Origin: Catajapyx aquilonaris
Lineage: Eukaryota
DNA length: 35,874 nucleotides
NCBI GenBank assembly: GCA_000934665.2
Contig: JYFJ02003974.1
Span: 1 to 35,874 of the forward strand
Direction of reading: 5' to 3'
The first letter of the stretch is position 1. Each line of letters starts with the position of its first letter. The translations under genes and the position numbers were made by a program. The notes beneath the pieces are model-generated. The model was not told where the DNA came from, did not search any database, and was given only the letters and a program-made list of their open reading frames with translations. Positions 4,972 to 31,134 of this stretch are shown here, one piece after another.

Positions 4972-7915
4972 GGCGGGCGGGCAATGGGAGAGGCCCAGTC
5001 TCATGCAGGCGGGGAGTTCGAATCAGGAAGGGCAGTGGCAAACGACGGGGTCGTGTCTCGTGTGAACCAGACGCACATTGAGAATGAGAGCCCTGACGCA
5101 CATGGTTCACAAATTCAAGTCAAAGACATTTAAAAACCAGCCTTTCCTCTCTTCATATACTCTGCTTCGTTTCTCTCTCCATCTGCCCCACCTTTGCATC
5201 TTCTTATAGCCAGATAGCCATAGTGTTGCTTTGGCTGCTTCCTAATAAACTAAACTAAAACTCTACTAGAGTGCTACTACTAAAGCTCTATTGCTTGAAG
5301 TAACAGATTATTGTACTCATTATAAGAGATTTTTAACGTGTCTACAGGGCATCATCTGCACCCTTGAATTCCTGTATCTTGGAATGCCATATATCCTTGA
5401 ATGAGTACTGAAACTAATGCATCAACGCACAACCACATGTGTGCAAGACTACGCTTTCAGAATGAGTGTTGCAGTTGTGCCCATGTTGTCAGGTCGTTAC
5501 TGCCTTCATGCATGTAGCAAACGCATCATTCTGTAGTCTGCTGGTGCTTCAAGAAGATAAACTCGAGGTATGGTAAGGAAGTCATGATGGGTCTGAATAA
5601 CAGTTTTTAGCCTTGTTGCAGACATATTCTAATTACTTAATTACATGCTTAAAAACATGCACTTTACCAAGGGCTGCTTCCACTAACATTACCTATCCTA
5701 GTGGTTTCTATTGTTTGCCTATGATTGTTTGCATGACAAGTATTAATTTCCCTAACGCATCCTTTTGTAACCTAACCTTTTAAAATCCTTGGTACTAATC
5801 AGAAAAAGGAAATGACACAAGTCACATTTTATTGTTTCTTATCCATAAACATTGCTATGTACCCTTCAAACATTTGCAGGAAGTTTTACAATGCCGATGT
5901 GACTATACTTTCAATTTTTGGTCGGCACCTTCCTTCAGTGTTTCGCACTCAACCACATCCACACTCACACCATGGTTTTTTTGTTTTTGTTTTTGTTTTT
6001 TTTTTGGCACTCGGGAGGGTGACACACTTGGGGAGGAAACATGTACATTGGGGGGACTTGATCCTAGAGACCTGCACCTGCTTTTTCCACATGACCCGAG
6101 CACCAGAGTTGGTTTAGGTAATCCAAAATCAGAGGAAAAAAACAGAGAATGACTGAAGAACAGGAACAAAGTACAGAAACATGTCCCGAACAGCCGTATA
6201 CCAAAATGGACCACACACATTCACATTTATCAGACACATATTCTCACTCGACTGTTTAGTTATTTATACAGCTATCATTGAGCTAGGCTACAATCACAAC
6301 TATTCACATCAAGTCCTCAACAACATGTGACATGCCAGATTTTATCCTTTGAATTAATTTTTCCACATTGAGAACACACCTACACAAAACTTTGGTAAAT
6401 GCAACATCCTCACATTTCTGATCGATTCACACCACCATTGATGATGTTAATACTGGCAGGTTAGTTGAGGACCATCCGATCTATGAGCTCTCTCACTTGT
6501 GTAGTATTTTTTCATTGAAATAGAGTGGAGCTAATCCACACCTGAAAGGAGCTCTGCTATGACAGAAAATGATGGATATGAGGAGAAAGACAATAGAAGA
6601 AGAGGGGAAACAAAGGGAATTTGTGGCAGAGAGGCGAATCATAAAAAAACATTCACATTCACAAAAGGTAGGGGGGTGAAGGTAGGGAGAAATAGTGTGG
6701 AGTTGTTCACACCTGAGTTTTATGTTGCCCTCCAGTTCACTTTTTCTTCAATTTCCAGAGACAAAAAGAATGCACCAGTCACTGAATTCCAACAAATTAT
6801 TCCGCCTCCCAAACTACTGCGTTTCCGAGGGCTAAATGCAAAACATGGCAAAAACTGATGAGAGTACACATGTGTCCACACATTGTGCCCTTTATTCACA
6901 TTATTATTTCCCTGTTTGCTTCCTTTGGTTAGTGGAAAGGGCGAGTCCCCCATGTCAAACCCCCCCAATAAATAGAATAAATCCTGCTATTAGTATGAAC
7001 AGTACAGCTAAATCAATATACGTAAGGTACCTTTCCTTTCATGAACATCAACTGAATCTAAAAGGATAATGAAGTTATTCAATAATGCCTATGTGGTGTG
7101 TATCGCAGAATATTGCAACAGGCAATTTTTGTACATACACATACTGGGAAGAAACACATTTATTATTATCACCTGTTGAAATCATTCTGCGACACACACA
7201 ATATAAATTTTCATGAAACATTCCTTCACCAATGTGAGGGTCAGTTATTGCAGATCGGTTATGGACTTTCACTTGTTCCAAATTTCTAAAGAAACACAAT
7301 AAATGAATTGTATGTACCTCCAGTCATCCTGTAAATTAATAATTAAGTGTAAATTTTAAAAATTACAGAAAGCCATTCCAATGCATGTAGCACAAATTAT
7401 AATTTTTTCCTTGCAACTTTTGACTACAATCACCATCAACAAGACATGAAATGGCAGTGATATTACAACAGCAGCAACAACAACAACGATAACAACAACA
7501 AAATCAGATACCAGGACGCGAAGGAAGACTGATAGATTTTAATAAACTTGCTGAACCTAAAATTGAGTGTTTCAGGAGCAATAATAATTCATGGACTCAC
7601 CCTTGCCACCAATTATTTTCAAGGGAAAGCAGAAAAAATGCACAAACACTTGTTTCAAATCACACCTGGATTGAGCGACCTTTTTCTCTTCATCTCCTTA
7701 TTCATGTTTCCCTCTGCCTTTTTTGCCGCCGTTGAGCAAAAAATATTGGGGGAGGAGAAAGGTAGAGGGTGGTTATAATGTTCGTCTTGTAGTATGTGTT
7801 TGTGAGGCAGTTTTCCATCTGAGATGTGGTGACATCACATTCGCCAGGTGCTAGCTGCTCTCCATCCACGTGGCCACCCTGCGTTGCCCTGCGGAGGGGC
7901 ACACTATGAGACTTC

Positions 7916-7935
7916 TCATCGAAATATGTTATGCT
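7916..7935 (-). CDS. PDE7: PDE7 possible terminal micro-exon (EHNIFR*), alternative to stopping at 8008
   Basis: Donor TCAG|gtgggt at 8015 and acceptor ctgacttttggctag| at 7936 define an 80-nt phase-1 intron with a branch-point-like CTGAC; TGA at 7918-7916. Confidence 0.4.
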
Positions 7936-8007
7936 CTAGCCAAAAGTCAGGCCTCCTAGTGTTTCATAACATCTCTTACCCTGTAATCTACTCTATCAAT
8001 CAATCAA

Positions 8008-8286
8008 CTACCCACCTGAGCCTGGAGTGAGTGCATCAACTGGCAGAGATCCCCTCCTCCTTTCCAGAAGTGGGTGTTGTGCAGGTGGACCTGGACCTCT
8101 TCCCCTTCCTCCACCTCCAAGCAGCTCCAGGCTGCCCCAAGCTAACCCACGGTCTGGCCCAAGGGCAGCAGCAGCCTCTGCAGGATACACTCCATTTCCA
8201 GCCTGACCCAGGGCTGCCCATGAGAACAACTCAGGTCCCCCTGAGCGCCTGCGCTTCAGGTTTGCAGATCGTTTGCCCAGAGCCAG
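8008..8286 (-). CDS. PDE7: PDE7 C-terminal tail exon (LALGKRSANLKRRRSGG...RRRGSLPVDALTPGSGG*)
   Basis: Acceptor ccctccaaaag|CTG, phase 0, matches the AAG|gtgagt donor at 9015; carries the same RRGSLP motif as the upstream exon; ends at TAG 8010-8008 or splices at 8016. Confidence 0.7.
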   Translation of the reverse strand: MALGKRSANLKRRRSGGPELFSWAALGQAGNGVYPAEAAAALGPDRGLAWGSLELLGGGGRGRGPGPPAQHPLLERRRGSLPVDALTPGSGG

Positions 8287-9015
8287 CTTTTGGAGGGATC
8301 ATAATAACATTCATGTCCTTTGGTCACACAAATTCAATAGCACATGCTAAATTACTTATGATGTAAAAGGCAAATTAATTTTTTTTATTTTCTCCTTCCC
8401 TTCAAAAAAAATCACCAGTGTTCTGAATAAAACAATGCAAATACTCTCAAAATGCTTACAATATTTTATGTGAATACCGATACGAGGCTTCAGAAATAAA
8501 TCCACAGCACCAGTAAATATATTTTATTTTCCTCTGCAATGACTTACTTGCCAGAACATTATGGTATGAACTTTACACTCCGTCAGTACAGGCCTCTATC
8601 ATGAAGTCCTCTACAACAAAGACAGTTACAGGACATGTTTGACAAACTAATCTTTCCTGCTGGTGTAGGGATATCAGCCATTTTTTTTCTGTATCAAGGC
8701 TGCCCATAATTTAGTTTGAAGGGCTTATGAGAGGTAATGGGGTAAAAATTACCCACTGGCAAGATGTATATTGCTGTACTGTACATTTTCAAAATGTACC
8801 CAACGAAACACAGTGCACTGATATGTTATGTTTCATGTAATGGAACACTGAAAAATGGGGGATAATCCAATTTACTAAAAACCTACATAAGCCCTTGCAA
8901 ATCTGCACATATCCCACTTCTTCCTCACAGCATCCAAGGTTGTGTGGTTGAAGCTGATTCATTGCATCTTACCACACACTGTGACAGTGACTTCCAATTT
9001 AGACCACACACTCAC

Positions 9016-9956
9016 CTTGTTGGCTGCCTCATGGTCTGAAGGTACTGATCCCCTCCTGGCAGTGAGTCTCCAGAGAGCAGTAGCATGTAACTGTGCTCCA
9101 CCCTCGCCTCCCACATCTGTAGCAGCCACCACCAGCATGGCTGCTGCGTCTGCTGGGAGCGATCCCCTCCTGACCAGTGCTGGTCCACGAGGATTATCCC
9201 TGGCCTTCAGAACCTGCCTGGAACCCTCCATTGGAGCTGATGCTCTTCTTGCCCACCTTCCATCTAAGCCCCACCCAAACTCCGACTCCCACCACACCCC
9301 TTCCTTCACTAGCCCAACAGGTGCAGACCCTCGCCTGCTGGTCAGTCTCTCCTTCACTCCTGCCACTTGAGGAGCATGCCTAGTCATGGCCACACCTCTT
9401 GATTCAATGTCTGCACCATCTTCAGTCAAGCTCCTCCAGGCTCTCTGCCTCCACCCATTGGCACCATTGCCTCTTCTAGAGGCAGGTGGAATCACATTCT
9501 CCTTTTCAACCTCACGGTGTCTCCGTCTAGTAGCTGGTAGTTCAACTGGCGTTGCCACTTGTGGTGGTGTACAACAGCCATTCTTGCATTTTGGGACATC
9601 ACCATGAGAAGAAGATGAAGAGCTTTCTGATCCCTCAGCCCCTCCTGAAGCCCCACCTTCTTTCTCATCAGAGGTTTCAGATGCAGCTGAAGCAGAAGCT
9701 GATAGGGATGCCTCCTCACAGCAGGAGCTGAGTTCCAGAGCAGCACTTAGGTATCGGGCCCTAAATGCAGCCGCACTTGACTGTGGTGGTGGGAAGGTCT
9801 GCTGGCGTGACAGCCGAGGCAAGGTTGGGCGGTTAAGCAGGGTGGCCAAGCGCGTTGTGTCATCCCGAGAAGATATTGATGCAATGGATGGCTCAGGTAA
9901 CAGGGCATCTGCATCTCGAGGGGTGGTTGGTGGAAGGTTTGCAGTCACAGACACAC
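9016..9956 (-). CDS. PDE7: PDE7 C-terminal low-complexity exon
   Basis: 941-nt open exon; acceptor cctgattcag|GT (phase 1), donor AACAAG|gtgagt (phase 0); Ser/Ala/Arg-rich with RRGSAP, RRASAP, RRGSLP, RRGSVP. Confidence 0.8.
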
Positions 9957-10150
9957 CTGAATCAGGAATAATTTGTGTTAAAATACAATTTTAATTTTTA
10001 ATATCACATCAATATAGCAATATGTTGGAGAGTTTCCTCAGATGGAAGTTCTACATGGAATCAGATGCTAAGAAATAAATTAAAATTGCTTCCATTTAAT
10101 TAGTGTCCTACGAAGGCTCAGATGTACAACATGGAGAATAATGTGCTCAC

Positions 10151-10708
10151 CTGACATTATGGACAGTGAAGAGAGATTAAGGCCATCATTCCTGTGCCAT
10201 ATGGTAGCAGAAGGAAACCTCCTCGGAGGTGCTGAGGGAAGGCTTTCCCTCCTGATTGTGGTCCTTGCTGCAGGTGGCTTGGGGATGCTGAGGGGAACTG
10301 AATGCCTTCTGAGCTGCCCTGCACCTGTTCCCACTCCTTCTGCATCATCATCATCCCCAGGCAGTCCTTCCCTCACACGCAGAAGACTTGAAGAAGAAGC
10401 CCTCCTGGATGATGAGCTCATCCCTTCCTCTGACGAAGACGACCTGCGAGTGCTGGAAATCTCCCCTGCCAGTAGAGCTGACCCTATTGCCCCTCCCACT
10501 AATTCCTCTTCATCTGAATCTATTCTGGGGTCAATTGGCTCTGTATCAGATATCTCAGTGCGGGTCTCTTCTGCAAGTTCCTGCTGTAACAGCGCTTCCC
10601 AGCGATCATGGTTGGTCTTAAGGTTGTTGAGCATGCGAGTGGAGAGGTTTGTCTTCAAAAATCGGTGCCACTCCTCAAACAAGGGGGACACCACAAATTT
10701 GAAAAAGC
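10151..10708 (-). CDS. PDE7: PDE7 end of catalytic domain and start of C-terminal tail
   Basis: (G)FFKFVVSPLFEEWHRFLKTNLSTRMLNNLKTNHDRW is the final class I PDEase helical segment; acceptor tttgcag|, donor TCAG|gtgagc. Confidence 0.92.
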
Positions 10709-10923
10709 CTGCAAAGCATGAGAAATTTTAATAATTCCCAGTGATTATTTTAGTTATACCCCATTACTGTTATGATTATCAAGTTCTCTCTCAGGTGGTG
10801 TCTTTCAGTACGTATTAAGAGAGAGACAATAAAAATATGTTTATTTCTATTCTATGCATTTAACTTAAGGTTAATAATGCAGAAAAGCTCCACAACTTTT
10901 GCCAAGAAAATGAGAAGACTGAC

Positions 10924-11338
10924 CTGACTGAATCTTGGGCACAGACGTCGACTGCCTGTCGCACAAGGAAGTGACTGGGAGATGAAGCCTTCTCTCGTAA
11001 TCCCCTTGTCTGAAAAACTCTTCACAAACTTTGTAGCTCCACCTCCTGCTCACCTCCCAGGGCCTGCAGGGGTTGCAAATATCTGCACATTTCAGAGCTA
11101 TTTGCAGGATGAAATGCCTATGTTCCGGCAGACGCATGTCCAGACCATCCTCATCCAGGTAGCGCCGAAAACCACACAAGAACTCCTGCTGCCGTGTTAT
11201 GTCTGTGGCCAAGATCAATGACTTGAGCTGTTCCTCCAGTTGGGATACCACAGATGGGCCCAGGGCTGCCCCAACTCCACTCTCACTAACACATCCCATT
11301 GCCGACCTCCAGTGATGGTTCTCTAGCACTGATGTGTT
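10924..11338 (-). CDS. PDE7: PDE7 catalytic exon
   Basis: [53 protein letters not shown], invariant Gln in KIQSG. The ENHHW, ADICNP and SxxWS signatures fit PDE7 rather than PDE4. Canonical splice sites. Confidence 0.95.
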
Positions 11339-11436
11339 CTGCAAGGAGTTAAGCCACGTGAGTTAAAACCAGTTGGGCAAGATTACTTCAATTTATTAAT
11401 GACGTGCAGCGGACCTGGTGATAACACGTTCCTTCA

Positions 11437-11549
11437 TTTATTGGCTAGCATAGTGGTAAGGGACAGTGTAATGATGTCACAGTGTATGCCTGTATAAGGG
11501 ATCCTTACACTGGCCTTGCAGGCTTGAAATCTAGCATGTAGCCAATAAA
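11437..11549. repeat. Imperfect ~113-bp foldback in a PDE7 intron
   Basis: Outer arms TTTATTGGCTA (11437-11447) / TAGCCAATAAA (11539-11549); inner arms CAGTGTAA (11464-11471) / TTACACTG (11505-11512). Confidence 0.6.
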
Positions 11550-11931
11550 CTAATACACCTAATGACAATGCCAATGGAACAGTACATTTTCAACAAATAT
11601 TACTTCACAGATAACATGTAGATGTCCCAAAAAAATTTATGAAGAGGTCACTATTTTTTGTAAAATATTGACTTCAACGTAAGTTGGTCAAGATGACGTC
11701 ATTTTACCTTATGTAAACATATACAGTATTTACCTTGAAAACATACTGTATGCATAATCTTACATAATTTTGCAAATACCAGTCCAAATCCAATAGATTT
11801 CTTTCAGAATACACAGTAAATGTTATTTCTGTACTGATGGAAAGTCATTTTACTGTACACCACATCAAAAATTGCCATAGCAGTAGTTCTCAAAGTCAAA
11901 ATGAGCTTACCAAATGCAAATGTAAACTTAC

Positions 11932-12063
11932 TTTGTACAGGGCTGCTAAATGGTTAGAAGTAGCCACAAGAAACGGTTGGTTGACCCCAGGATGATCCAA
12001 GTCATGAGTCACAGCGGCAAGGAGTGCTGCCATTGCCTCCATTGGTGTCATATGTTCACGTAT
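11932..12063 (-). CDS. PDE7: PDE7 catalytic exon (metal-binding HD motif)
   Basis: [57 protein letters not shown] matches PDE7 as recalled. Acceptor cttaag|ATA, donor AAA|gtaagt. Confidence 0.95.
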
Positions 12064-12135
12064 CTTAAGAGAGTGAAAAGTTGTTTGCATTCTCAATTAT
12101 GATGGATGTAACGACCTAGTGGAGTCTGATGCTAC

Positions 12136-12332
12136 CTTGTCCTCCTGAAGGAAGCAGTGCATGGCCTGAGTGACATCAGTGGCATGGATGGCATTGTGGT
12201 AAGGATTGCTACCGTGATAGCCCTCCTCTATGAGGCAGAAGAGTTTCCACACTTTGACAGCATCCAATCCAAAGTGATCCAGGAAGCCATACCAGTGGAA
12301 AAGGTAAGTACAGAGGACAGGTAGAGAACGGC
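12136..12332 (-). CDS. PDE7: PDE7 catalytic exon (YHN motif)
   Basis: Frame not in the ORF track: (G)[65 protein letters not shown]; acceptor cttacag|, donor AAG|gtagca. Confidence 0.95.
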
Positions 12333-12592
12333 CTGTAAGGAATAAACATTAGTTTCAGCAGGTGGCACTAAATTAACATTATTTGTATGCAAGTGTTGTA
12401 ACTGGCACTGAAAAAGCCCTGAAGCATCTCTAGGCTGATAATGAATTATTAAGTTACACAAAGATTGCTTTATTCTACAGATTCTAAATGCATAGTCACT
12501 TTGTGTCTTCCTCAATTTCAAAGAGAGCTTAAGCCAGTTTAAAAAATTTCAGTTACTTTTATAGCAGGATATTCCAAAGTGTTTGAACTTAC

Positions 12593-12656
12593 CGCCTGTG
12601 GCATTGTCGAGAGCAAATGCATTAAAGTGCCAGTGAGCACTCCTTTCCAGCAATAC
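12593..12656 (-). CDS. PDE7: PDE7 exon (start of catalytic domain)
   Basis: [21 protein letters not shown](G), matching the WxFxxFxxD segment; acceptor tatcag|GTA, donor GGCG|gtaagt. Confidence 0.9.
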
Positions 12657-12717
12657 CTGATATAAAATGCAAATTTTCACTTTCTAGATCACTTTTCTTC
12701 ATAATAAGTGTACCAAC

Positions 12718-12932
12718 CTTGGCCTGCCCATGGTATACATCATCCAACAAGGCCCTATCCTGAGTGAGGGCTCGAGTTGTGAGCCTCCTCCGCCTCCTCT
12801 TATGCATGGTCAGAAATCTGCCTGTATGGAGTGGACGGTGCGTACGCACATCCAGGGTTTCCATCAACACCCAGTCTGAGTCCATGCCCATGGCCTCGCG
12901 ATTTTCTCCTGCTTCTTCTCCACTCACATCGC
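12718..12932 (-). CDS. PDE7: PDE7 N-terminal exon
   Basis: (G)DVSGEE...[12 protein letters not shown]...[11 protein letters not shown] resembles PDE7A GDV...ILDDDYNGQAK as recalled; acceptor ttttcccag|, donor AAG|gttggt. Confidence 0.88.
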
Positions 12933-13909
12933 CTGGGAAAATAAAGCACCTTGCATCACCACTTGTGCCTGCCCGTTGCTCGAGAAGCACGACTTAACTA
13001 CAAAAAGTACGTAGTAAAGCCCTAATGCTCTCTATTTCACACATTTCTTACATAAAATACAATGCATCCTTAGAGATGGGAAAAGTTTCAAGGTTTGTGA
13101 TGTAATTAGCCTTTTTTATTCTATCCCTTTGAAAATCCCTTTATAGAGCACTTTAAACCACAGTCACGCATCTCACATTTAATCGTTTATAACATTCTCC
13201 CCAATTAGTTTTGTGCTAACTACATCAAGCATTCTACTCATAAAATTATAATGAACTGTTCATGTTACATTGGAAGAACATTGGTGGAACTGGAACGTTG
13301 GTTTCTACATTGTCATAGAAAGTGCCAAACCATCCTTATTCTCATTACACACTCCTAATGTATTAGCACAATTATTTACTTTATTTTCACCACTATGTTT
13401 TTCCCTTAGCACCACAAAAAGAAAGCACCGTCATGTTTACATCCAGCACATGCAAAAGATTCAAGGCACTGGACTTTGCACAATGCTGCCGTTTCACCAC
13501 TTCAACCGCATTATGCTTTCCCATGACTACAAACATCCCCCTCCGAATCTGCACGATTCCGTGAAACTTCTTATGACACAAGTGGACAACGACCTCACAA
13601 CATGACCCTAGCAGGTGCACCAGCATTGGAAGTAACCTGCCGCCTCTTCACATGCAATCCAATTTTTCTAGGGCAAGCCCTTATTCCCAAGAAGCTAAAT
13701 GATAGCGAAAGATGCCGCTCCACTGAAAATTCTGCGACATGCAAATTTCACTGTATTACTTGACAGACTCTGATTGTATGTTGCGTCGAGGACTTATACT
13801 CCATCGTTCCCTTTCATCCTTATTAGATTACTCCCTGCAACTGGACAGACCGTCCTCCCCAGTACCTGATATGTCCACACCAATGCAACTCTCAAACCAT
13901 TCCAATTAC

Positions 13910-13994
13910 CAGTCATGGTGACGGTGAGCACATGGCTGGAGATCCCAGCCACCAGACTCCTCTCCAGCGACGCCCTCGGGCCGGCACACACGCT
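13910..13994 (-). CDS. PDE7: PDE7 common exon 2
   Basis: Strong acceptor ttttctgtacttccag|; SVCAGPRASLERSLVAGISSHVLTVTMT(G); phase-1 donor ACTG|gtaatt gives MTG|DV, positionally like PDE7A IRMLG|DV. Confidence 0.75.
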
Positions 13995-16900
13995 CTGGAA
14001 GTACAGAAAAGGGAACCCCGGTCAGTGGCCATCTCACAACAGAATCCCCAGGCAGGTCTCTCTCTCCTTCTTTTTTACTTCTTCCCCACCTCGCCTCCAG
14101 CTTCAGCTTGCACACTGAGCTTACATATATTTTTTGCGCTCGTTCCTTTCACCCCCGAGCCACATTCCCGCGCGGTGTTGCCTAGTCTTTATTTATTTCC
14201 GTTCGAAGGGTGCTATCGTCTTATCTGGAATATTTGCAGTAGTCATGTGGTGTGCGAGATGCTGACAGGCAGGGTAAATCCCAAGAGAAAAATTTGCGCA
14301 AAAGTGCGTGTCTGGTGTCTGCAACAATTTGCAAGCTTTGACATTGATGATTCGAAACCCTCTCGTGTGTGACTAATGGGGTCATCTCCCCTTCGTCACG
14401 CTACAGTTGTTGTTGTTGTTTACCATGCACTGTACAGTACGTCTTGGCGCCAGTACTCGCAATTTCTAAATTGCAAAATCGCACTTTACACGGCAGCAAA
14501 AAATACGATACGTAATACTTACTGCGCTGTTGAATATTACGTGTCCGTTTGTCAACATGACACTCAATAGTTCGCAAAAAGAAAAAAAAAAGAGCAACAC
14601 GCAGAATCGCACTAAATACATACTGTTAGTGCTTCCAGACACCTCCACAAAAGCCTTGGAAAAGCACCAGGCGCCCTGTGGTTATTGGAACAGATCTATC
14701 TGCTGGACTGATCGCCGCTCAACTAACTCTATTGAGGCTGCCGGGGTCAAAGAGGAAGGCCCCGTGAATGAATTAAAGGTGTCGGAAGATTAGCCAGACA
14801 GCAAAAAAGGCAGACATCAATCAGATTGCAAGGGGAAGTAACATTGTACCAAGCGCAACATGGAAATGGGACTATTATGTATTCCACTTTTGCCCCCAAA
14901 TGATAAGCATCGCGATTGTACAACAATAATATTGTAGCCTACTAGTGGCAATTGTGTCGTTGAATGCGACCATTCACGCCTGTTCTTCAGTGAAGGTGAC
15001 AGGGGAAATCCACAGTTCAACTGGAGGTAGTTTACCCCAACAATTTAAATATTCACGAGTATTATTCGCTTTAAAATTATTTCCATTATTTATATCTAAT
15101 TTATCATTTAAATCGAAGCAATATTAATTGCTCTGTGACTTTTTGCTACTCTTGAACCTGGGTCTTGACCAGTGACTTTTTTTTTGATCAGCACGATTGT
15201 CACTATGCGACGTGTGTTGGTGTGAGGCCTTCGGACAGTTGATTGCCGATTTTTTAGGAGGGCTCTTATTCATTGCTCCCATTTGTATTCATCAGGGTAA
15301 TCTCCTGGGTGATCAAATCCCCACTCTATGATAAGTAGTGAACGGCTCTGGGCGTGCTCCCGGAAATGGCCAATTGGCAAACCTAGCCGTACAGATAGAG
15401 CCGGTTTGAATGTCGGGTGGTGGAGGAGGAGGAGACAGTGGGGGGTGGGGGTATGATGTTCGCTGTCCGCCATCTACAGGTGGCCGTTCGAAAATGAATA
15501 GGAATGAAGGTCGTGGAAGAGAAGGCCACCGTATGCATTCGAATGGATTAGAAGGGGCTAGCCTGTCGAAGGCCTCGGGAAAAAAACAGTGAAATGTCTC
15601 CCAAAATGTAAATGGGGGGAAATCACAAAACCAAATGACAGGTGCACGATTTTCTTCCCATCCTCACCTGTTTCCAGAAAAGAAACGTCCAATATCGACA
15701 TACATTATAGCCCGAACTGTACAACTATATAAACGGCGGCAATGAAGATGTGCCTTGTGGTCAGCAACGTGCTTTGAAAATAAGTATTCAGTTAGCAGCC
15801 GGGTGACTAACCCAACCTTGAAGAATGTCCATTAACCCTCAGGTGTGACTAAATACGACCCTGAATCACTTGGCCCCAATTATCACCCCAAAATGCATAC
15901 CACCACAACTGGCATCATCGCAATGACATAACTTCTCTCAGATTTTTTTTTTCTTCGCATCGCTTTCACTTCTCTACTGAATACACTCCTAACGAATTGG
16001 TGCCTTCAAGAAGGAAGAAGCACAAAAAAAACCTTGTTTATCCACGGTGTCAACGTTCGCCAAAATTTTTTTTGATGCTAATCAAAAACTGATTTGGCAA
16101 GCAGCGACCCGGACAAGCAGCCCGATAAATCACCCAATGTAAATGACCCCCATCGTCTGCCTGCATAAAACAACACAAGCGGAAGACCACCTCTCATGAT
16201 TCATCCAGGTCAATCCCACATACTCACATAGTGATTATGCCTACACACGCGCACGTACATATGCAGCACACACGTTGCACGTCCAACTCCCGCCTTCTCG
16301 CAAACCACTATGCCGCGTGTCGGCCTTCACTTACCCAACCACATACTCCTCCATCCCCCACTATACCCCCTGTATACTCCAAACAGGGCACATCCCCCTC
16401 AACATGCACAGACTTTCCTAATGCCACATTATTGTTGAGCACCACAAATTGTGAATGACTGGGTGTGAAAATTGTGGCATTGTTAGATACTTGTAGATTG
16501 ATATTGCTGGTTCGCTGTATATTGTATATACAGAAGCGGAAGGTGATGCTCAAATGGGAAAACAATGTTGGCCCGAGAGACTCCGACGACCTTTCTGTGA
16601 CAGGTGAATACCGTGCCAATAGATCTTGGCACGGTCCCGGGACGTTGGTTGGTCAAAATGCCACCGCATTTGCATGATATATGCAATATGTTCCGTGTGG
16701 ACTGAACCGGGTAAATCCGAATTTCTGCATATGTTGAGTCAGACATACACATGTGCATGCTATGTCAAGAGTATCTCAATGATTCGTCAATCCCGGCGCA
16801 TATAATTTATGACAGGCTATTCTATACATCGCAGGAATATTATCAGTTGTATTATGGTAATCATCAGTTTTGCAATGGCTATATTCTGACATAAATCAAT

Positions 16901-17432
16901 GAAGTCATTACATGGACCGCATTCTCTACCATTAATCACCACAATTTTTTTCATGACACATTATTGCTGCGAAGTTAATCGCTTAGTAGCAAAACAGCCG
17001 CTTGCCCTTTAAAATTCGCATATATTGCGTAATAGACTAATAGTACGACGCTTCAACTCGGGCAACACAATTACTCGATTCACTATACCAGTACAATGCA
17101 GTTGTATAAAGGAAAGGACGGAAGGCTAGAAAACAATCATTTCATATTATAATGCGTGGTGCGTTATTGTACAGTTGTTATCCGCATATGAAACAGGCTT
17201 ACAAGTACGCAAGGTGTTTTCAGATAAATCCCCCAGATCGTATTTGCAGCATTTTACCGAGTACTGCTGGTGTTCTTGGGATTTCTATTCATGCAATTCA
17301 TGCACTATATTTTTTAATCCGACCACATGCTCTTCTGTAAAGCTGTGACGCCGATCAGTTTTTCTCTTGCGCGAAAATCAGGGACCAATACCAAAGTTCA
17401 AAAATAAACGTGTCGGTTACTTATGTACGTAC

Positions 17433-17471
17433 TTGAGACCCACCACTTTGCGCCAATATAAACAACCCCAT
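17433..17471 (-). CDS. PDE7: Candidate alternative PDE7 first exon (MGLFILAQSGGSQ)
   Basis: ATG preceded by an in-frame stop, phase-0 donor CAA|gtacgt, about 200-300 nt downstream of a CRE cluster and a TATA-like TTATAT. Confidence 0.35.
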
Positions 17472-17605
17472 TCTAAAAGCGTGTCCCCAAAACAATCGTA
17501 ATTTTGCTCCCAAATTACACGAATCAAACCGCCCCGGTATCACGATAAATGAGATTCATTGCCCAATATTTCGCGAAAATCACTTCAATCATCATGGACG
17601 CACAG

Positions 17606-17850
17606 TAACGTCACAAAAAAATAAATCTCTGTCGATTAGATCAGATACCCACACAGGTGATATAATTGGCGTCCCTCGACGTCACGGCGTCCGAAAAGTA
17701 GAGGCCCGCCCTTTATTGACCTGACCTCGACGATTCCCTAGGTTGCTAGCGTCGCGTGACGTCACAGAGGTTGAGGGTCCGCCTTGACGTCACGAGAGAA
17801 AGAGCAGGCGAGAAGCGTCAAGGTGCATAACTGGCCTCTAAGTGACGTCG
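17606..17850. promoter_or_regulatory. CRE cluster (internal promoter or enhancer of PDE7)
   Basis: TGACGTCA at 17757-17764 and 17785-17792; near-CREs TAACGTCA 17606-17613, CGACGTCA 17677-17684, TGACGTCG 17843-17850; CpG-rich. Confidence 0.7.
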
Positions 17851-20800
17851 AGGGGCGTCGGTAGCGTCGAGAGGGTGGAGGGAGTGGTCATCGATATTCA
17901 ATTTCCCTTTCTCTCCTCCCTCTGTCGTAAATGTGGACACAGAGTCGCAAACAAAAATCCAGAGGGCTTTGTACCCATCAAGCACTTCACAGGCTATATC
18001 GATTGAATGAAAACTGACCTATCCCACTAGAACCATCCACGTTTCCACTTGACTACGCGAAAAAGAGCGGACTGGAAAGATCATTTTCGCAACTTCAAAT
18101 TGGCGGCCTTGGGGAGTTGTGCTGTCTGTACTTTCGACGGAGTGTTTTCCGTGCATTATGCGGTTGTGTTCGTGCACGGATCAAAAGTTTACATATCGTT
18201 GCATCGCTGCGCATGAGTACAAAAATTCCCTTTGGGTGGTCAACACCAGGTAATGTAAAAATAACAATGCTTTTGACATTGTTTACCTGTGTTTGGGGGG
18301 AAAAACAGAGTGTGTCCATAATATGATCAGGTAGAAAAAATAGGAGAACGCGAAATTAAAGTCATGCTTCGTCACATGGGAAAACTACGAGTGAATTCCC
18401 TCCAGATCCCACGATCCACTGTTGCCCCATAATATTGTACGTAAATTTTTCATAACACGTATGAAAAATGTAAGTGCAATATTATGGGGATAAAGGTGAC
18501 ACGTGTATCATATTTGCCTAATAAAACAACAGAAAAAATAGTTCTAACTAGAGCATGAATCCTATAAAAGGACCTGCGTCCCAAACATTGTTTACCATTC
18601 CGTTTACTGTGGTCGGTAATCCCTCTCGTATGTATGGTGCTTTGAGTGTGTGTATATGTGAACAGCATGACCCTAGTGGATGCATATGCCACACATTAAA
18701 TCCAGTCCCTGTGCTGTGTATTAGGCTACTCTTTTTATACGAGGTGTACGTACACCTCGAAACGACCTATATGACCTACACAACTAATTAATTACCCAAG
18801 CTATAGTCAATGACTTCACACAATTGGCCCTAAGTTTACCATGTACACACAACTCGGGTATGAAAAATGGCTATAATTAAGAACATAATAAATTGCAGGA
18901 AAATTCTGATCACTGGTCCACATCCATCCAAGGTCTCGACAACAACCTTGCTGGAACGCACAACGTGATGTTTTCCTTTCCGCAGATCAGCTATTGTTGC
19001 ATGAAGGTCAAATATTACTTGGCGCTCATTAATGTCATCTGTCATTGGTTATTCACGTCATCTACCTAAACCCGTACCTCGCCAAAATAAGACACGTTGT
19101 TACATCCCACGACACATTCAGATGTCACTTTACCTTCCAACAATCTCCAATGTGATATACCATTAGTCCATTACCAAGCACACTTTTCGATCACGGAAGT
19201 AAATCAATGCGAATATCTCTATACTGAATGAGACTTCGTCAAGAACCTTGACCAGATTTGAAACAAGGTTTCTTTTTCTGCACATATTTAAAAAAGTTTG
19301 GGCCCGAAATGGAGCCTCCCTTGCATAGTTTCGACTACTGCAGTAGTCTATTCCTAGCCCTCCGGCTTTACCATTAATCCCAAAATAAAAAGCTGAATGG
19401 GCGCAAGTGGCAAGAGGTCTCCACAAATAAACATTCCTCTTTTCATCCGAGGTCACTTCTACAGGATAGGAAAAAGAGGCTAAGGTAGTGTTTAACAACG
19501 GACATTAATAACAATCCCTTCTTTCCGTGCCAAACGGACCTATGATAGAATATTCAAAAAGGCCGCGGCTATATATATCCACCAGTTCCAATCCGCCGTC
19601 TCCACATACATATAGCTGAAGTTCAATATTCATTAGACCCGTGTGTATACTTCTGTGCAAATGCAAATTGCATAATTCAGCTCATGTAGTGTTTGCACTA
19701 CAACTTTGTGATTGGGGAAGCAACACGTCATGTTATGCTATAAACCGCCCCATAAAATTTGAGCTGATCAAAAAATATGGGCCTGGCGGAGGTGACGCCG
19801 ATGTATATTTACAGTACTGTACAGTGTGACGTCGGAGTTCAACATCCCCTCCCGACACTTGCGGACTTTGGGTCTGAAAGAGACAGGTTGTATCCCCTTT
19901 CCCTTCCTTTCAGGCCGACGGGTGTAAATATTTATTCCGAGCTGTTAGTGTAACCCATTCCTCCTTGGCTTCAGCCTGAATTCCATTCACATTCGCTAAA
20001 TAATGTAACCCATTTCTATCCAGGCCGCCTTTCCTGCTCGACTGGACTCAGGCTCAATAGTTTTCGTGAAAAGATAGCGGTTTGGCCCATATACGACCTA
20101 ATTCCTTGGGTCGCGAGTTTGTATTAAGTGTAATGAATGCGGAAAGGCTGCATAGATAGTAGGGTCTAAACTATTACTAACCTAGCTCAACCTTTCCTTG
20201 GCAAAATATATAGACGCGGCTATTTTTACTACAGTACTAACATTGTTGGCGTTTAGAATCTCCCTCCAAAATATAGGTTAGCTGAATGGCACCTAATTTT
20301 TCGTAATAATCAAAAATGTTCATTTTGACATCATACATAACGTGAACTCGACTCTACGCCCTAGGTGTACTATACGACAGCAACTTGGCATCGGGCCCAA
20401 ATGTTAAAACTCTAGTGGGTGCTGTGACAAGTGCCACCTCAAAGTGATTTAAGCTTAAGAAATGTGGCCTCGTCGTCAACACTGTACTTACTTCATTGAG
20501 GTTTATATTATGTCGTATATACAGTTTATAAGTACGTTTTGACTCACCATATACATTTTATCGTCGACACCTGTTAGCATTGTCCATATCCCAGAATGAT
20601 CATTACAAACTGCACTTTCAATTCTTGCCAATATCGCCCCCCATCCAAAATAGGATATCTGGCCCAAAAAATCTGGGGCGCGGACCAATCAGTATCCGGG
20701 CTCGGTCCGGTAACTCCGGTGTATATATCCACGGGTGTCCTATTAGCAGTCGGCCATGACGGGGGTTAATTGGGTCCTCATTCCGCAAATCCATTCCCCT

Positions 20801-23800
20801 CACCACCCGATGAGCAATCATTTTCAGGCGACGTTGCCAGAATGTGTGCACAACTGTGTGTTTCAGTGCTCCCTTCCCTCCCCCCTCTCCCCTCCCCTCC
20901 CTTCCCTGCACTTCATCCAAACCCAGAGCCTGCAATATTGATTTCGCCCGGGCAGCCCAAGAGAAGGACTGGGAAAACGGGAAGAAGAGCCTTTGATTTG
21001 CAGTCTGGGATGGAGGAGGTAAAAAGGAAGATTGGGGGTGGGGGAGGGAGGGAGGATGATAAAAAAATATGGGGAAGGGGTGTAATCAGGAGAGTCACGA
21101 TATTTGATCATTTTCGACACCCTCGTCACATTATCTTCAAATCAGGAGAGGCGGCCTATAAAGCTCAGGGGGTGACAGAATCGATATTTTTCTCATTAAA
21201 AATTTGCTTTTTTATTACTGAAGTCGATACTGGCACGCAACATGTAATAAGCGCTATGGGATAATTTTCTTAAAATGCTAAAAAGGTGTCAAATTGTAAT
21301 ACCCATGTGGGTTAGGCCTCCCGAAGAGCTATCATGATACAGCACTTACAAGAAAGTGAAATTAACAGTATAATATACGCAGCTTATTCGCTGTGATGAT
21401 ATATCTTTCGTTAGCATAATTTTAGACGTGTACTTTCCTTATTCTCGTCCTGCACTGCATATAACATGCAGATTTTCACAACTCAGCATATGAACAGAAT
21501 TTATGATGTTACGAAATGTGCTAATACAGAATAGATAAGGAAATCAGGAGCTGACACGTAAATTAGAGATGCAATAACCATAAAGTAAGGTTTTGGCAAT
21601 GGATTGCATTTAAATCAAAGGATTTGGGTTAGAATCACGGAAGTGGAATATTGCCCTTTATGAATAACATCACTTGACATAATAGCAAATTCCTGGTCCC
21701 CAATTCAACCTTTCTCTTGCGACCTCTGAATTACATACCGTTATTATACCAAGCCTTTCTCCTCAATTGGGTCTTTAATTGGGTACATATATTATCTCCC
21801 ATGCATCGCTTCCTCATGATATTTATTGGTACTGAACATGTGCTACAGATATCATAACTGGAGCAATCCGCTTTTACTTCCGCCACATCCCACATCTTTG
21901 AAATCATGCTTTCGACATGATTGCAACTAGTGCGCTGTTATTTCCTCAATAATTCAATTTCAATGGCGGATTTATAGGCAGGAAACGACACATTATTCTT
22001 CCGTTCGTAGACCTGGCTGCGCCCCAGAGGGAGACGTTTATTTCGGAAAGACAAGTCACCCAAGGACCAGAAATAGATCGAACTAACTCCCTCACACTTT
22101 TCTTTAAATCGACCTTTTCATTTGATTTTCTTTCAGAATTACAGGATTACATATACACCAACGCATATTTATTCTAACTCATTCATTTTATTCATAATGC
22201 AACTAGGATGTGCAGGACGCGAACAGAAATATTCATCTACGCACAATGTTACGTATGCATTAACTTGCAGCTACATATTCGTGGGAAAAAACTGTGCTCA
22301 AAATCAACTATACTGCCAGCAAATTGAATTTTATATGAACAGCACGCTGAAAAATCACAACCTTTCCATGAAAATGTGCGCTATAAGTTCGCGTTACGTA
22401 ATTTGTACATAAGTAAAAAATTTCTCAAAATTTTAATCAAGCAATATTTCGGTCCATCACAAAAGGCCATAAACAGCAGGCTTGGCATCACCTCAAATGT
22501 CACCATCGATCCTGACTTTTGGCACACTTGAGATTCAGGACCTTTTCTTTAATAACACTACTACGGGCCAGGACCCGTACCTTCTGCCAATTTCCCTGGG
22601 TTCTGGGCTTAGCTGCAACCTGGTCTATAGGAGGCGGAGGGCGATGACACCAGGGGAAAAGGTACGGTACACCACCTCCCCCTACCCCCTACCCACAGGC
22701 TTCCCGTGTGCCCAATCAATAAGGGAAGGTAGGAAAAGAGGTGACGAGAAGGGGAGGCAGGTAGGGGAACAATTCTGCATTTTTTAAAATCACCTTATTG
22801 CACCAGCACGTGCCAAAGATTGCGTATCCAACATCACCCGCTATGAAAAATAATGCGCAAATGAATGAGTGATCCGCGCTTAAGCCATACAACACTTGCA
22901 CTTGGCACAAATCACGCATTGGACTAATTGACCTCTGCTATCTGCACGTCCTCCCAAAGATAAACAAATAAAGGCCACGGGATTACGCAGGGGCACGAGC
23001 GAATCACGAGGCCCAAACCACAACAATAACCGTGGTGACGCTGGTCAAATGTGGCTAAATTCGGCAACACAGCCTGAAATGGCGCGCAAAATTTAAATCG
23101 TCCGATCATACAACCTTGGCTTAATACAAAATGTCAAAATAATTAAATATTTTCTACCGATATTACCAGCTCCGGAGCCAGAGACGTTTGGCTGCCCTTC
23201 TCCTCCGTGTGCAGGTCCTGTGTTCGATCCCCGCGGATGCAAAACAACTGCGCCAGAAAGTCCGCGATGGCGTTGCAGGCGCTCTGCATGGCACCCAGCA
23301 CGAGTGGTCACTGATAAGGGCTCTGCTGACACCGCACCAACCGGCAACACCGCTCGAGACCTCATCACTGTCACCTGTCCATTGTTGCCCCGCAATAAGT
23401 GACGGACACACCAGGGTCAACCGGCGTGCTTTGAACAACGCCAATCTTATTCCACCGCCAGGCGGATCATCAGGGTGCTAAAATGCTAGGCAACCCTGCT
23501 GACCCCAAAGTTCGTGACCCTGACCCCAATTTTTTTCCGCTTAAAGTAACTCTGATTTTCCCGCCTTTTTTTTTACTAGAGGGCGTCACCGCTTCCACGG
23601 GGCCAACCAACCGGCGACTAAACTCGGTCTATCTCAAGTTCGACGTTGCCGCCTCAGTCCGCGCACCTAAAAAAAACACACAATATCTACGCATGCGTAC
23701 TAATTACTAACCCCTCCCATTCCCAACTACACGGCGAAAATTATAGCAAAAGTTCGGCCAACTTGGCCAAAAAAAGCAAATTCGCCAAATTTGTCAACAC

Positions 23801-24642
23801 CGGTTTCAAAAATTGGGCATTGCACCCACAAAATGTTCGCAAAAATTTAGGTCCCCAGATTTGCATATCCGGCATTCGCGATGAGTAAACATGGGATCAG
23901 GCTGACCAATATTTATAAACCGATATCGCAATATTTGCACGGACACGAGGTTCGCGGTTTGTGATTCTGTAATCACTGACCTACGGCCATGCAGTGCGTG
24001 TCCGCCACTAAATTTAGCGTCGCTCCTATATTTAGAAGCCTCCGGTGATCGGACCTGTACTGAAAACTGAACCATGATTAGTCGTTGAGTCACTTGGGAC
24101 GCATTGTGTGTTGCATGCTGTTCAGGATAATGTGGGAAGCAGGCCACTGGAATCAGTAGACACTGACATATAAGCAGACAGAGAGAATAAGTGGATTAGT
24201 AGTATGAGTACGTTTGTATTTGTGTCGGTGTCTTCACCAACCTGTCTCCTTTGGTGGTCCTCTTTACTTAAAACCAGGCCGATAGTCCATTCCACAATTT
24301 TAGGACCCCCCCTGGAACCATGCCCAAAAATGTACAGCTGTATGCAAGGCCACATACCCTTCATGCCTTTGGTGGCGAGATTCAAATTCCGCGCTGGAGA
24401 TTAGCGGAGAAGGAGGTAAAAAGAGCGCGGGCGCGATTCCAACATTGGGAAGCGGAAGCGGATGTCGGAGGCAAAAACACGCTGGTTGGCGAGCCGAGTT
24501 GAGCGAGGGTTGGGTGGAGGTTGGGGTGTCGGATGAGGTGGAGTGTGACCCGGTTCCGGAGGGGGTGGTGCAAGACGACAGGGTTAGGGGGAACGCCTTC
24601 TATGACCTCAATCTGGCTATGCAGCTACAAATCGCCCTCCGC

Positions 24643-24684
<42 letters not shown>
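24643..24684. repeat. (AAT)14 microsatellite
   Basis: Directly visible. Confidence 0.97.
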
Positions 24685-25978
24685 CGACAGGCTGTCTTCC
24701 GTTATATGTTGCTCCATTGTTTACATTCAAGTGTGACGCCGCGTTGGCCTCCGCAGGTGGCGCACATATGGACACATCCATCTTAATAAAAGTGTCTATC
24801 TTGATTTGCATCTATTGGGCCACTCGCTCGTTGACAAGTTCAAATAAATGCACGTAGGGTGCGACATCAGGGAGCGAAGCAATGACGTGGCCGTTTTCCT
24901 GGTGTCTCGAGCAATCTTTACAACTTGTGCGTGGAACGTACATACGACACGGAGAGAGGTTATTGCAATTTACGCAACCTATCGCCAGTTCAGGGCTTTC
25001 GGTTTCATTTCCAGGGGGATTTGCGTCATTCGGAGTGCAAACGCAGCGTGCAGTGAAACAAAGCGGATTGTTTAATAAAAAAAATTAAAAAAACGAAAGT
25101 AATAATAAGTGTAGCACATGTGAGCACATGTGGTATACGACATGTAAACAGCAGTTTTAAACCTATATAAATTGTTCAAAGCTATTTTATGCAATATAAT
25201 ATGAAACTAGAGGTACTTTATCTATTAATCAGATTTAGCACTTTTAGTAGTTTGCACTCTTCTCCACATTGTATAATTTTGTAATTCGTAACCTACCATG
25301 GGTTTATAATGCGAACCAAGGGACCTTTCAGTGTCCAGGGGCACTCATACTGAATTTACTGCGGCATAAATTAGATTGGCGGATCCCATTTTGAACATTG
25401 ACCGAAAAGTATTCCGCAATGAGCAGCACGCTAAGTACAAAAATTTGCATCGTTCTTTTTTTGTGTGTGTGTGGCAAGGTTCAACTTTGAAAACCAGTGA
25501 TAATCGCCACAAGTTATAAACGGTGCAACCGATGGGGGGGAGGGGGGGGGGGGAGGAAGGCGATGACAAATGGGAATTCGAGCTACTGCACATTTACGGG
25601 TACAACATTGCAAGCTGCAATTTGCAAATCTCAGCAGTGCGAATAGTTACATAACGCATGAAAAATGCTACCGTATGTTTTGATTGGCATTACGCAATAT
25701 ATGGCGAAATAATATTAGCAAGTTAATAGTCATTTTTACGTATAGGCTCCTAAAATGCGATGAACGTAAATTAAAAATGAAGTCTCCCATTATGCTTAGG
25801 CACGTAATCAGAGATTTTCTCCTTAATTTGCGATGATACAACTACCCCCAAGTTTTTACGCTTAATTTCCCAGCAGGAACAGGCCAATTACCGTATTACC
25901 GTCACATACCTGATTACGGTGGCATATGAAACAAAACAAAACCTCATTAAACAAGGCGCAAAAAAGGAAACGCAATAC

Positions 25979-29374: not shown

Positions 29375-30095
29375 AGTGTGTGCAAGAAATGAACAGGTGG
29401 CATGGTATAGTTCGGTTCAAACTTTGTGGAAGTTGCCTTATCTTAATCATACCCCTACCTCAACTAACATGAGATACTTTGAGACCATCAAGCTGCCAAA
29501 ACCAGGCAGATTGCCAAAATGATGCAGGGAAATGCATCACATTGTAATTTGCTGTATTGTTGAGAGTTCATCATCACAATAGTATCATCCTACAAAAAGT
29601 TACAACAGCATCATATGTGTTGCAACTCGCAAGGTTAAGTGCTGCAACGTGGCTTCATGCAGTTAACGGAGGTAAACAAGGCACACCCAACCTCATTGCA
29701 CATTGCAGTCACACCTTTCTTCGGAAGATGCCCAACTACGTAAATTTAGTTTGGTATGGAATGGAGTGGAATTAACGAAAAGGCCAATGTGGTCATTCAT
29801 AAGCGAGTTAAAAATTGGCATACTGCACTGATAAAAGCTTGCTCTACAATATTAATCTATAAATGGAATCTTTCAATTGAACTGTAGACTCATTTTATCA
29901 CTGAATACATAAAATGGCACAGCAATGGGACCGAGAGTTAAAAAAAAATTAGTTAGCTTCTAACACATTCCAAAACACTATTGACAACAGAAATGCAAAT
30001 ATGCAATGAACATGTTTGCAATTGACAAACATCATGCCACTTGTTTTGCAATTTGGCCACAACGACCAATTATGCAGGAATTCAGAGAAACTTAC

Positions 30096-30724
30096 CTTGC
30101 GACAGGTCTGAGCTTCACAGCCCCAAGCCCCTTAAGGACTTCCATCATGGATGGAGGTGGTGGGTTCTTGAGCTCCAATGCAGGCGATGGGGGTGGGGGT
30201 GATGGAGGAAAGTTGCTAAATTGCGAAAATGTCTTGGGAGGTAAGGGTGGGGGTGGCGGACAGGTCCAAGTTGGTGATGAAGGAGGCGTGAAGGTTGGGG
30301 AGACGAGAAGGTAGTCTGGAGGAGGTGGAAGTTCGTCCTCCTCGATCTTGGCATGAACAAAAGCAGCTATCTGTGCCTTGAGCTGAGCCAGTTCCTCCTG
30401 AAGGGCTGCAACCTTGTCTCCTTGACTAGATATAGCAGACTCGCCACCAAATGTTAGGCTATCCATATGTGGTTCCTCTTCTTCCACGTGGACCCATCTC
30501 TCATCATTCGCTTCTCCCTCCTCCTCTTCATAATAACCAATAGCACCCTTTATGCTCTGGGATAAAGCAGTTGAGTTGAGGGTGGGAGCAAAGGAATCAA
30601 AGCAACTGTCAGTAAGCTTGAGGAATATCTTTCGTTGGGGTTGCAGGTAGAGTGTGCTGCCAATGAGACGGGGCAGACTGCGGTAACGACCATGGCTGCG
30701 TTTCAGGTCAAGCAGCTTATGAAG
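30096..30724 (-). CDS. MTFR1: MTFR-family coding exon 2
   Basis: HGRYRSLPRLIGSTL (family G..RS..R.IG..L motif), coiled coil DKVAALQEELAQLKAQIAAFV, polyproline tracts, MMEVLKGLGAVKLRPVAR; acceptor tttcag|CTT, donor AG|gtaagt (phase 2). Confidence 0.93.
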
Positions 30725-31134
30725 CTGAAATGAACAAATTGCAACCTGAATTATCCCTTAACGTAAAAAATATTAATGCCCTCCTCAAGTCAAATTCAGT
30801 TACTCATTTATCTGATGTTTTTTTGTTTTTTTTGTAACGATATGCCTGCCTGATAATTTTGTAAAATCCATTTCAACAGACATTTTCCACAAGATTATTT
30901 ACTCACAACTGTCTTTTCAGAAACACTTTAAAAAATAATTACATATACTGTAACTTAGTTGCTGTTATCATTTTCCATGGTTCTTTGAGTGCTCAACTTG
31001 AATAGGCTCTTTAGAATGACTATGTAATCACCAATTTTTAGGCAATGACAGCACAACCTGCCCCTGAGAGGATGTTCTGATATCATCAAATAGCATGAAA
31101 AACCAATGTGAGTAATGTACCATACATGTTATCT

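Follow-up and report, generated by a model that had tools for sequence, protein, structure and literature searches.

The protein encoded by a phosphodiesterase (PDE) gene of Catajapyx aquilonaris continues beyond its catalytic domain into a long tail with an array of RRxSxP islands, and this tail very probably constitutes a built-in multi-site regulatory switch since insects and springtails keep the array in order. The gene lies on the minus strand of contig JYFJ02003974.1 (assembly GCA_000934665.2, positions 1 to 35,874; this whole stretch of 35,874 nucleotides is called the window below) and, judged by its catalytic domain, its product is a PDE7. The region appears to be a C-terminal regulatory extension of arthropod-type PDE7, in which near-invariant short linear motifs of the form Arg-Arg-x-Ser-hydrophobic-Pro (seven here, up to ten in insects) stand within a mostly variable tail. 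The best explanation of the array, to which we assign a probability of about one half, is phosphorylation by protein kinase A (PKA) combined with a 14-3-3 clamp, acting as feedback on cyclic AMP (cAMP).

Exon translations from the minus strand matched Pfam PDEase_I, and scripted joining of nine exons (12882-12718, 12656-12593, 12332-12136, 12063-11932, 11338-10924, 10708-10151, 9956-9016, 8286-8016 and 7878-7835), with GT..AG at every border, yielded a frame that stays open for 928 aa. Splicing was followed in contigs of X1, a single public run of unrecorded library type (contigs totalling 32 million letters, with 39% of the sampled words from 7900-12900). The parts of the gene are listed below, joints being written as two exon ends separated by a slash.

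10924 to 12882, minus strand: catalytic-domain exons, matching Pfam PDEase_I and co-linear by tblastn with termite protein P0003
10151 to 10708, minus strand: tail exon A, both end joints present in X1; as a query (185 aa) it retrieved 113 proteins, all but seven short fragments having PF00233 and all named ones being hexapod PDE proteins
9016 to 9956, minus strand: tail exon B, joints 10151/9956 and 9016/8286 present in X1; as a query (313 aa) it retrieved 63 proteins, all with PF00233
8016 to 8286, minus strand: tail exon C, joints 9016/8286 and 8016/7878 present in X1
7879 to 8015, minus strand: 137-nt GT..AG intron with a TAG at 8010-8008, skipped by one X1 contig
7835 to 7878, minus strand: coding part of terminal exon D, ...WPRGWRAASTWRM, then the stop codon TGA at 7837-7835, drawn from X1 contig pieces and the reading frame

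Contigs of X1 placed on 6000-25000 skipped seven stretches, whose CT..AC ends on the plus strand correspond to GT..AG on the gene strand. Joints 12718/12656, 12593/12332 and 12136/12063 were bridged between catalytic exons, joint 10924/10708 connected the tail with the catalytic exons, and the tail joints 10151/9956, 9016/8286 and 8016/7878 were each spanned by a contig; joint 11932/11338 we infer from GT..AG ends and the open frame only. Two of the tail joints, 10151/9956 and 9016/8286, had already been proposed by a sequence-only reading of the window, and both displayed GT..AG borders with matching phases. The same reading had let three tail exons end at 8008, with a tail of ~550 aa. This description holds for the form that retains the 137-nt intron, where the protein ends ...GSGG at 8008; in the spliced form, however, exon D is a fourth tail exon and the frame runs 13 residues further to end ...STWRM-stop at 7835. 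Removal of this intron (8015-7879) was recorded in one contig with 167 letters on its shorter side (CT..AC, cut +1). Counted from 10590, the tail comprises ~552 aa when the intron is retained and ~564 aa when it is spliced, in agreement with the length originally put forward.

Exon A still contributes ~45 aa to the end of the catalytic domain before the tail begins, and the 3' untranslated region downstream of exon D extends at least to 7402 (contig pieces 7711-7877 and 7402-7712). Residues 72-1020 of the 1039 residues of termite protein P0003 were co-linear with the window by tblastn, exon order being kept, which provides independent support for the exon joining. A search within the window for the 5' coding exons of the PDE7-like gene gave nothing convincing.

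Some further details of the X1 contigs deserve mention. A 245-nt contig at 8532-8776 sits within the intron between exons B and C and may come from RNA that still contains the intron, or else mark an alternative 3' end that would shorten the tail; the last one or two motifs are missing from some insect isoforms (Xylocopa). At 10440 X1 has T instead of C, and at 10961 A instead of G, in one contig each; these differences are probably allelic, between individuals. At 24160-24207, X1 contigs touch the window with loose ends on both sides; this spot may belong to a repeat, or to an exon of the PDE7 gene further upstream.

The catalytic domain places the protein in family PDE7. PF00233 was recognized on three exon translations (E values of 3e-37, 2e-14 and 1.5e-5), and the metal-site motifs HNxxH and HDxxH were present in the joined translation, the second one reading THDLDHPG. 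Against solved structures, the central catalytic exon scored 168.8 bits with PDE7A, versus 77.8 bits for the next entry (titled 'Phosphodiesterase') and at most 65 bits for PDE9A, PDE4D and other named families; high-affinity, cAMP-specific hydrolysis is predicted from this membership. Over 370 aa, the catalytic region shared 74-76% identity with that of polyneopteran insects; with that of the one fish PDE7 model retrieved, the identity was 43%. Complete hexapod models displayed 66-76% catalytic identity over ~370 aa. Among the best 120 of 879 matches of the catalytic exon, identity to any hexapod relative reached at most 78%, and named matches were from hexapods save the fish model, which scored through a long gapped match. 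In a maximum-likelihood tree, the window protein fell in an open polytomy with hexapods.

The basic islands of the tail are the following.

10448-10431, minus strand: RRSSSS, exon A
10406-10389, minus strand: RRASSS, exon A
10310-10293, minus strand: RRHSVP, exon A
10253-10236, minus strand: RRESLP, exon A
9336-9319, minus strand: RRGSAP, exon B
9249-9232, minus strand: RRASAP, exon B
9171-9154, minus strand: RRGSLP, exon B
9057-9040, minus strand: RRGSVP, exon B
8256-8230, minus strand: KRRRSGGPE, holding RRRS at 8253, exon C
8058-8041, minus strand: last RRGSLP, exon C

The RRxSxP, RRxS and RQQTFP motifs enumerated by the sequence-only reading were all recovered at their minus-strand places. 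Their number was far above chance, as judged from 20,000 shuffles that preserved the composition of the 603-residue stretch beginning at the last catalytic helix and ending at the stop. RRxSxP occurred seven times (shuffle mean 0.062, maximum 3), RRx[ST] ten times (mean 1.17) and Rxx[ST]xP eight times (0.84 expected), and 0 of the 20,000 shuffles reached seven, ten or eight, respectively. Recent tandem duplication was considered and rejected as the origin of the islands: at the DNA level only a motif-coding stretch of ~24 nt recurred (four copies, 71-100% identity), and the lack of long duplications indicates islands that were maintained rather than recently copied. The tail contains 10.8% Arg and 66% disorder-promoting residues, and no Pfam domain was found in it, nor any membrane-spanning or nucleic-acid-binding domain. 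From this composition, the missing Pfam domains and the conservation pattern described below, the tail is predicted to be disordered.

The suggestion that RRxSxP islands might be conserved in a divergent background was strongly borne out in 151 hexapod tails. All matches to exons A and B with an organism name were hexapods, from springtails to bees and mosquitoes, and at least 14 hexapod orders were represented among the tails. Ten clusters were looked up, five of which have a named member, all insects (termite including Coptotermes, planthopper, beetles). A phmmer search of a representative library with exon B returned 11 matches, none better than 1e-8, and added no taxon beyond hexapods; its five named matches (P0002, P0014, P0139, P0141 and P0142) were insect proteins or exon A matches. 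The ESM Atlas search gave no usable match. Diptera among the matches were mosquitoes, gall midge, sand fly and sciarid, and no Drosophila or other brachyceran fly occurred among the 113 exon A matches or the other match lists, which is weak evidence of a loss of PDE7 there.

Exon B and the termite tail shared 31% identity over 308 aligned columns (E value of 5e-20), and the identities clustered in LLPEPSIASI, RQQTFPP, KNGCxTP, RRGSAPVGL, RRxSxP and RRxSLPxD. Of the 139 proteins retrieved, 136 had a tail that could be located; it always contained between 2 and 10 RRxSxP motifs, in the constant order (RRPSLP) - RRHSVP - RRESLP - (RRYSTP) - RRGSAP - RRGSVP - RR[AS]SLP - RRGSVP - RRGSLP, and the seven sites of the window correspond to seven orthologous island positions. 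RRxSxP was encountered N-terminal to the located point in only four of the 139 proteins, once each in P0014, P0100, P0136 and P0139, the last three being proteins without a properly located tail.

For the main alignment, 203 proteins provided 163 tails of at least 390 aa, and removal of 12 isoform duplicates left 151, to which the window was added. In the RRHSVP island both Arg and the Ser were present in all 151 orthologues and Pro in 149. Conservation was also counted at RRGSAPV (R 134, R 137, G 134, S 136, A 133, P 134, V 130), at RRGSVPxD (R 137, R 137, G 134, S 138, P 135), at the C-terminal RRGSLP (R 118, R 118, G 117, S 119, L 120, P 122) and at RRSSGGPE (115-123 of 151), the remaining rows at the islands being mostly gaps from truncated gene models. 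The tail as a whole, by contrast, varied widely: a 75% majority was reached in only 94 of its 558 columns and 224 columns stayed below 30%.

The PKA and 14-3-3 mechanism would operate as follows. Rising cAMP would lead the PKA catalytic subunit to phosphorylate several island serines, and the resulting pSer-x-Pro islands would be mode-I-type 14-3-3 ligands. A 14-3-3 dimer could then bridge neighbouring islands and clamp the tail, and the clamped tail would alter the activity, location or stability of the enzyme, thereby providing fast feedback on cAMP. RRxS followed by a hydrophobic residue is the optimal PKA consensus, and R-R-x-S/T-hydrophobic was encountered in all seven RRxSxP islands of the window, with V, L or A at +1; at orthologue sites, +1 was L, V, A, M, I or F in 853 of 902. 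RxxpSxP is the mode-I pattern of 14-3-3 proteins, and the eight Rxx[ST]xP matches of the tail display it at the sequence level. Pro at +2 is not needed by PKA, yet it was near-invariant (122-149 of 151 rows at four islands), which argues for a reader of pSer-x-Pro. Neighbouring islands of the window were 19, 29, 26 and 38 residues apart and the first two islands were separated by 17-25 residues in 100 of 101 tails; such spacings are compatible with bridging by a 14-3-3 dimer. Direct observation covers the gene model, its splicing, the excess of motifs and their conservation by position; the kinase and the reader, like any effect on the enzyme, we infer. That effect might be activation or stabilisation, i.e. 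negative feedback, as PDE3B and PDE4 would suggest by analogy, a direction in which our confidence is low.

Several observations weigh against this mechanism or against the evidence on which it is built. The ELM canonical 14-3-3 pattern bars G, P, D and E at -1, where the seven sites of the window have G at four and E at one, so that only RRHSVP and RRASAP agree with this rule; G also occupied -1 in 474 of 902 orthologue sites. Several islands are thus perhaps weak 14-3-3 ligands, although RRPSLP of PDE3B, a reported 14-3-3 site, would likewise fail the -1 rule. At +4, an acidic residue (D or E) occupied four of the window's seven sites and 474 of the 902 in orthologues, a feature explained by neither PKA nor 14-3-3 and which may point to another reader. 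On the charge-hydropathy plot the tail was borderline and was not classed as natively unfolded (H 0.437 versus a boundary of 0.420). The splicing evidence consists of one contig per joint from one run, and the 151 tails are mutually related and Hymenoptera-heavy, so that the counts cannot be treated as independent. In the sources searched, we found no data on phosphorylation, binding or activity of the protein or its orthologues. Finally, RRxS also fits PKG, CaMKII, PKD, RSK/S6K, PAK and Aurora kinases.

This last point leads to the most serious competitor, in which the islands are phosphorylated by another basophilic kinase (PKG, CaMKII, PKD, RSK/S6K, PAK or an AMPK-related one) and convey cross-talk into cAMP breakdown instead of a PKA loop, a 14-3-3 reader being optional. 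We regard it as a genuine contender, though an unlikely one. RRxS is common to many AGC and CaMK kinases, and the same tail conserves LxRQQTFPP and RxRYxS sites, thus resembling a multi-kinase hub; yet Arg at -3 and -2 together with a hydrophobic +1 is the textbook optimum of PKA, and the enzyme is a predicted cAMP phosphodiesterase, a class in which PKA feedback is presented as the rule for PDE3, PDE4 and PDE8 (PMC10926215).

The array could also act on PKA itself, as a substrate sink or anchor buffering free catalytic subunit near the enzyme and extending the role of the PDE7A1 pseudosubstrates, two N-terminal sequences described as binding and inhibiting the PKA C subunit (PMC6143667). Insect orthologues do hold an N-terminal RRGAIS-type sequence beside the tail array. 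The N-terminal exon of termite, stick-insect and cockroach orthologues encodes RRGAISV(D/E)RT; among P0003, P0031, P0046 and P0075, the termite and stick-insect proteins begin MQQCGICSV...SRRGSGDSYYQEL...RRGAISVDRT and the cockroach model displays RRGAISVERT. By its sequence this N-terminus could be a PKI-/PDE7A1-like pseudosubstrate with a Cys-rich start where lipidation is possible; the window yielded no counterpart of it. The absence of RRGAI sites claimed for the window was reproduced (neither RRG[AGS]I nor RR[GNS]A[IVL] gave a match on its minus strand), but it concerns the part of the gene found there, the 5' exons not having been located. A sink has, however, no need for a +2 Pro or for the conserved flanks APVG and PxD, true pseudosubstrates have Ala and not Ser at the acceptor position, and seven to ten sites on an enzyme of probably low abundance form a small buffer, all of which makes this role improbable for the tail.

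Still less probable, in our opinion, is that the Arg-Arg islands are basic docking or sorting signals (di-arginine retention, nuclear import or nucleic-acid binding) in which Ser and Pro merely provide shape. The tail is certainly Arg-rich, and phosphorylation of the islands is a prediction. But Thr, Ala, Asp or Glu hardly ever stands in for the Ser at position 0 (Ser in 151 of 151 rows for RRHSVP and 138 of 138 occupied rows for RRGSVP), an invariance that is the signature of an acceptor residue, and the searches reported above gave neither a membrane-spanning nor a nucleic-acid-binding domain. As for an artefact, i.e. chance motifs in a low-complexity read-through or in mis-joined exons, the low complexity between islands and the X1 contig inside the B/C intron are outweighed by spliced contigs at each tail joint with an open frame and GT..AG borders, by co-linearity with the termite protein and more than 100 orthologous proteins, by the shuffles and by the conservation in 151 tails, which together refute it for all practical purposes.

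Besides the basic array, the tail and its end carry further islands.

10574-10545, minus strand: acidic AEETRTEISD island, exon A
9903-9874, minus strand: LLPEPSIASI, exon B
9813-9787, minus strand: LSRQQTFPP, exon B
9762-9745, minus strand: RARYLS, exon B, 11 residues past LSRQQTFPP
9507-9487, minus strand: EKENVIP, exon B
7852-7838, minus strand: C-terminus STWRM, exon D

The most conserved non-basic island was ENLLPEPSIASIT (L 150, P 149 and I 150 of 151 orthologues); LLPEPSIASI fitted no motif known to us. The acidic AEETRTEIS island also belonged to the conserved ones. LxRQQTFPP (147-149 of 151) fits the LxRxxS/T kinase pattern as well as RxxTxP, and RxRYxS (141-145 of 151) fits an Akt/RSK/S6K-type consensus; LSRQQTFPP and RARYLS are conserved candidate sites for non-PKA kinases. 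The consensus of the KEN box recognized by the anaphase-promoting complex/cyclosome (APC/C) is [DNE]-K-E-N-x-x-P in a non-globular region. EKENVIP fits this pattern, and EKENxxP was retained with K in 147, E in 149, N in 148 and P in 145 of 151 orthologues, which suggests a candidate degron for APC/C-dependent turnover. A C-terminal WR[LMF] was common to 31 of 152 tails, window included (termite, cockroach, honeybee, sawfly). The STWRM end of the spliced form aligns with the WRL and WRF ends, and its carboxyl end is class II PDZ-like, hydrophobic-x-hydrophobic being the termination that resembles class II PDZ ligands.

Upstream of the PDE7 gene and on the same strand, an open reading frame of 221 aa (30092-30757, minus strand) matched Pfam Mito_fiss_reg (mitochondrial fission regulator) with an E value of 9.7e-15. 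One database protein, P0150 (1229 aa), combines PF05308 with PF00233 in a single model. In human, MTFR1 adjoins PDE7A and MTFR2 adjoins PDE7B, and the Mito_fiss_reg frame beside PDE7 may be a very old micro-synteny.

A broader picture, on which we would place a modest wager at most, is that of an ancestral arthropod PDE7 module lost in vertebrates and higher flies: a clamp gated by cAMP, in which 14-3-3 would bind multivalently and the seven to ten PKA sites would give a steep, switch-like response, supplemented with the Akt-type RxRYxS, LxRxxT, a KEN degron and a WR[LM] end. If so, PDE7, thought to be devoid of a regulatory domain, would be the most heavily wired insect PDE. Should the islands indeed be PKA and 14-3-3 sites, insects would have a PDE7-based cAMP feedback loop without vertebrate counterpart, bearing on neuromodulation, learning and hormone signalling in bees, mosquitoes and pests, and the tail would be a target region not present in vertebrate PDE7. 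It also offers a clean natural case of short-motif conservation within fast-evolving sequence. To our knowledge, functional work on PDE7 was all carried out on the short vertebrate enzymes, and Drosophila and C. elegans have no PDE7; such a lack in the standard models would explain how a tail of 550-900 aa went unnoticed. No description of the PDE7 tail was found in the full-text literature searched, whose coverage leaves out subscription journals; one candidate paper, PMC12586521, was discarded since it concerns a compound named PDE701.

The closest relatives of the window protein are hexapod gene models of the same family with co-linear tails and islands in shared order: Cryptotermes secundus LOC111867414 (P0003), Zootermopsis nevadensis LOC110835253 (P0031), Apis mellifera LOC414021 (P0009), Anopheles gambiae LOC1276218 (P0115) and Folsomia candida LOC110842028 (P0137). 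These relatives are automatic predictions, mostly named 'uncharacterized protein', and no papers on them were found in the literature searched. The window differs from them in a few points: it displays RRASSS where many insects have RRPSLP, it is devoid of the RRYSTP island found in Hymenoptera, and it shares a WRxRxWxSLT insertion with the springtail only. Vertebrate PDE7A and PDE7B have a similar catalytic domain (PDE7A being the best solved match), but vertebrate PDE7 ends soon past it, and the fish PDE7 model stops 19 residues beyond the matching point, without such a tail. According to a review, PDE7 is without any known domain besides the catalytic one (PMC12346295). In PDE7A1 the link to PKA is N-terminal and inhibitory to the kinase as described in the source cited above, in contrast to the C-terminal acceptor array reported here.

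Other PDEs provide closer functional precedents. In PDE3B and PDE3A, phosphorylation by PKA or PKB is followed by binding of 14-3-3. According to PMC10926215, 14-3-3 binding of PDE3B is promoted, and its activity protected, once PKA has phosphorylated it, and Ser428 of PDE3A and Ser359 of PDE8A bind 14-3-3 too. Rat PDE3B is reported to contain RRPSLP (PMC2995729), which is the first island of many insect tails, and both are cAMP-hydrolysing PDEs, by prediction in the case of the window, with RRxSxP-type sites. The PDE3 sites are, however, N-terminal to the catalytic domain, few in number, located in another catalytic family and not arranged in an ordered array of seven to ten. In PDE8A, Ser359 and 14-3-3 zeta exemplify PKA-dependent binding to a cAMP-specific PDE (PMC10926215). 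This is a single site where binding lowers activity, and family and position differ from those of the window.

The hexapeptide itself is familiar from other proteins. RRHTLP of AANAT was named a 14-3-3 motif (10.1101/683466), the engineered sensor peptide LRRASLP serves as a PKA recognition motif (PMC13602928), and the first PKA reporter (AKAR) is described as coupling a Kemptide-derived site to 14-3-3 tau (PMC4526808). RRHTLP and LRRASLP are nearly identical to RRHSVP, RRASLP and RRGSLP, but they are single sites in unrelated proteins. LRRASLP is also the peptide of AKAR1. These precedents establish that PKA and 14-3-3 can both make use of such a hexapeptide, but not that they do so at an island here. 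Control of PDEs through basophilic sites and 14-3-3 is thus known ground, whereas an ordered C-terminal array of putative phospho-motifs on a PDE7 appears to be new.

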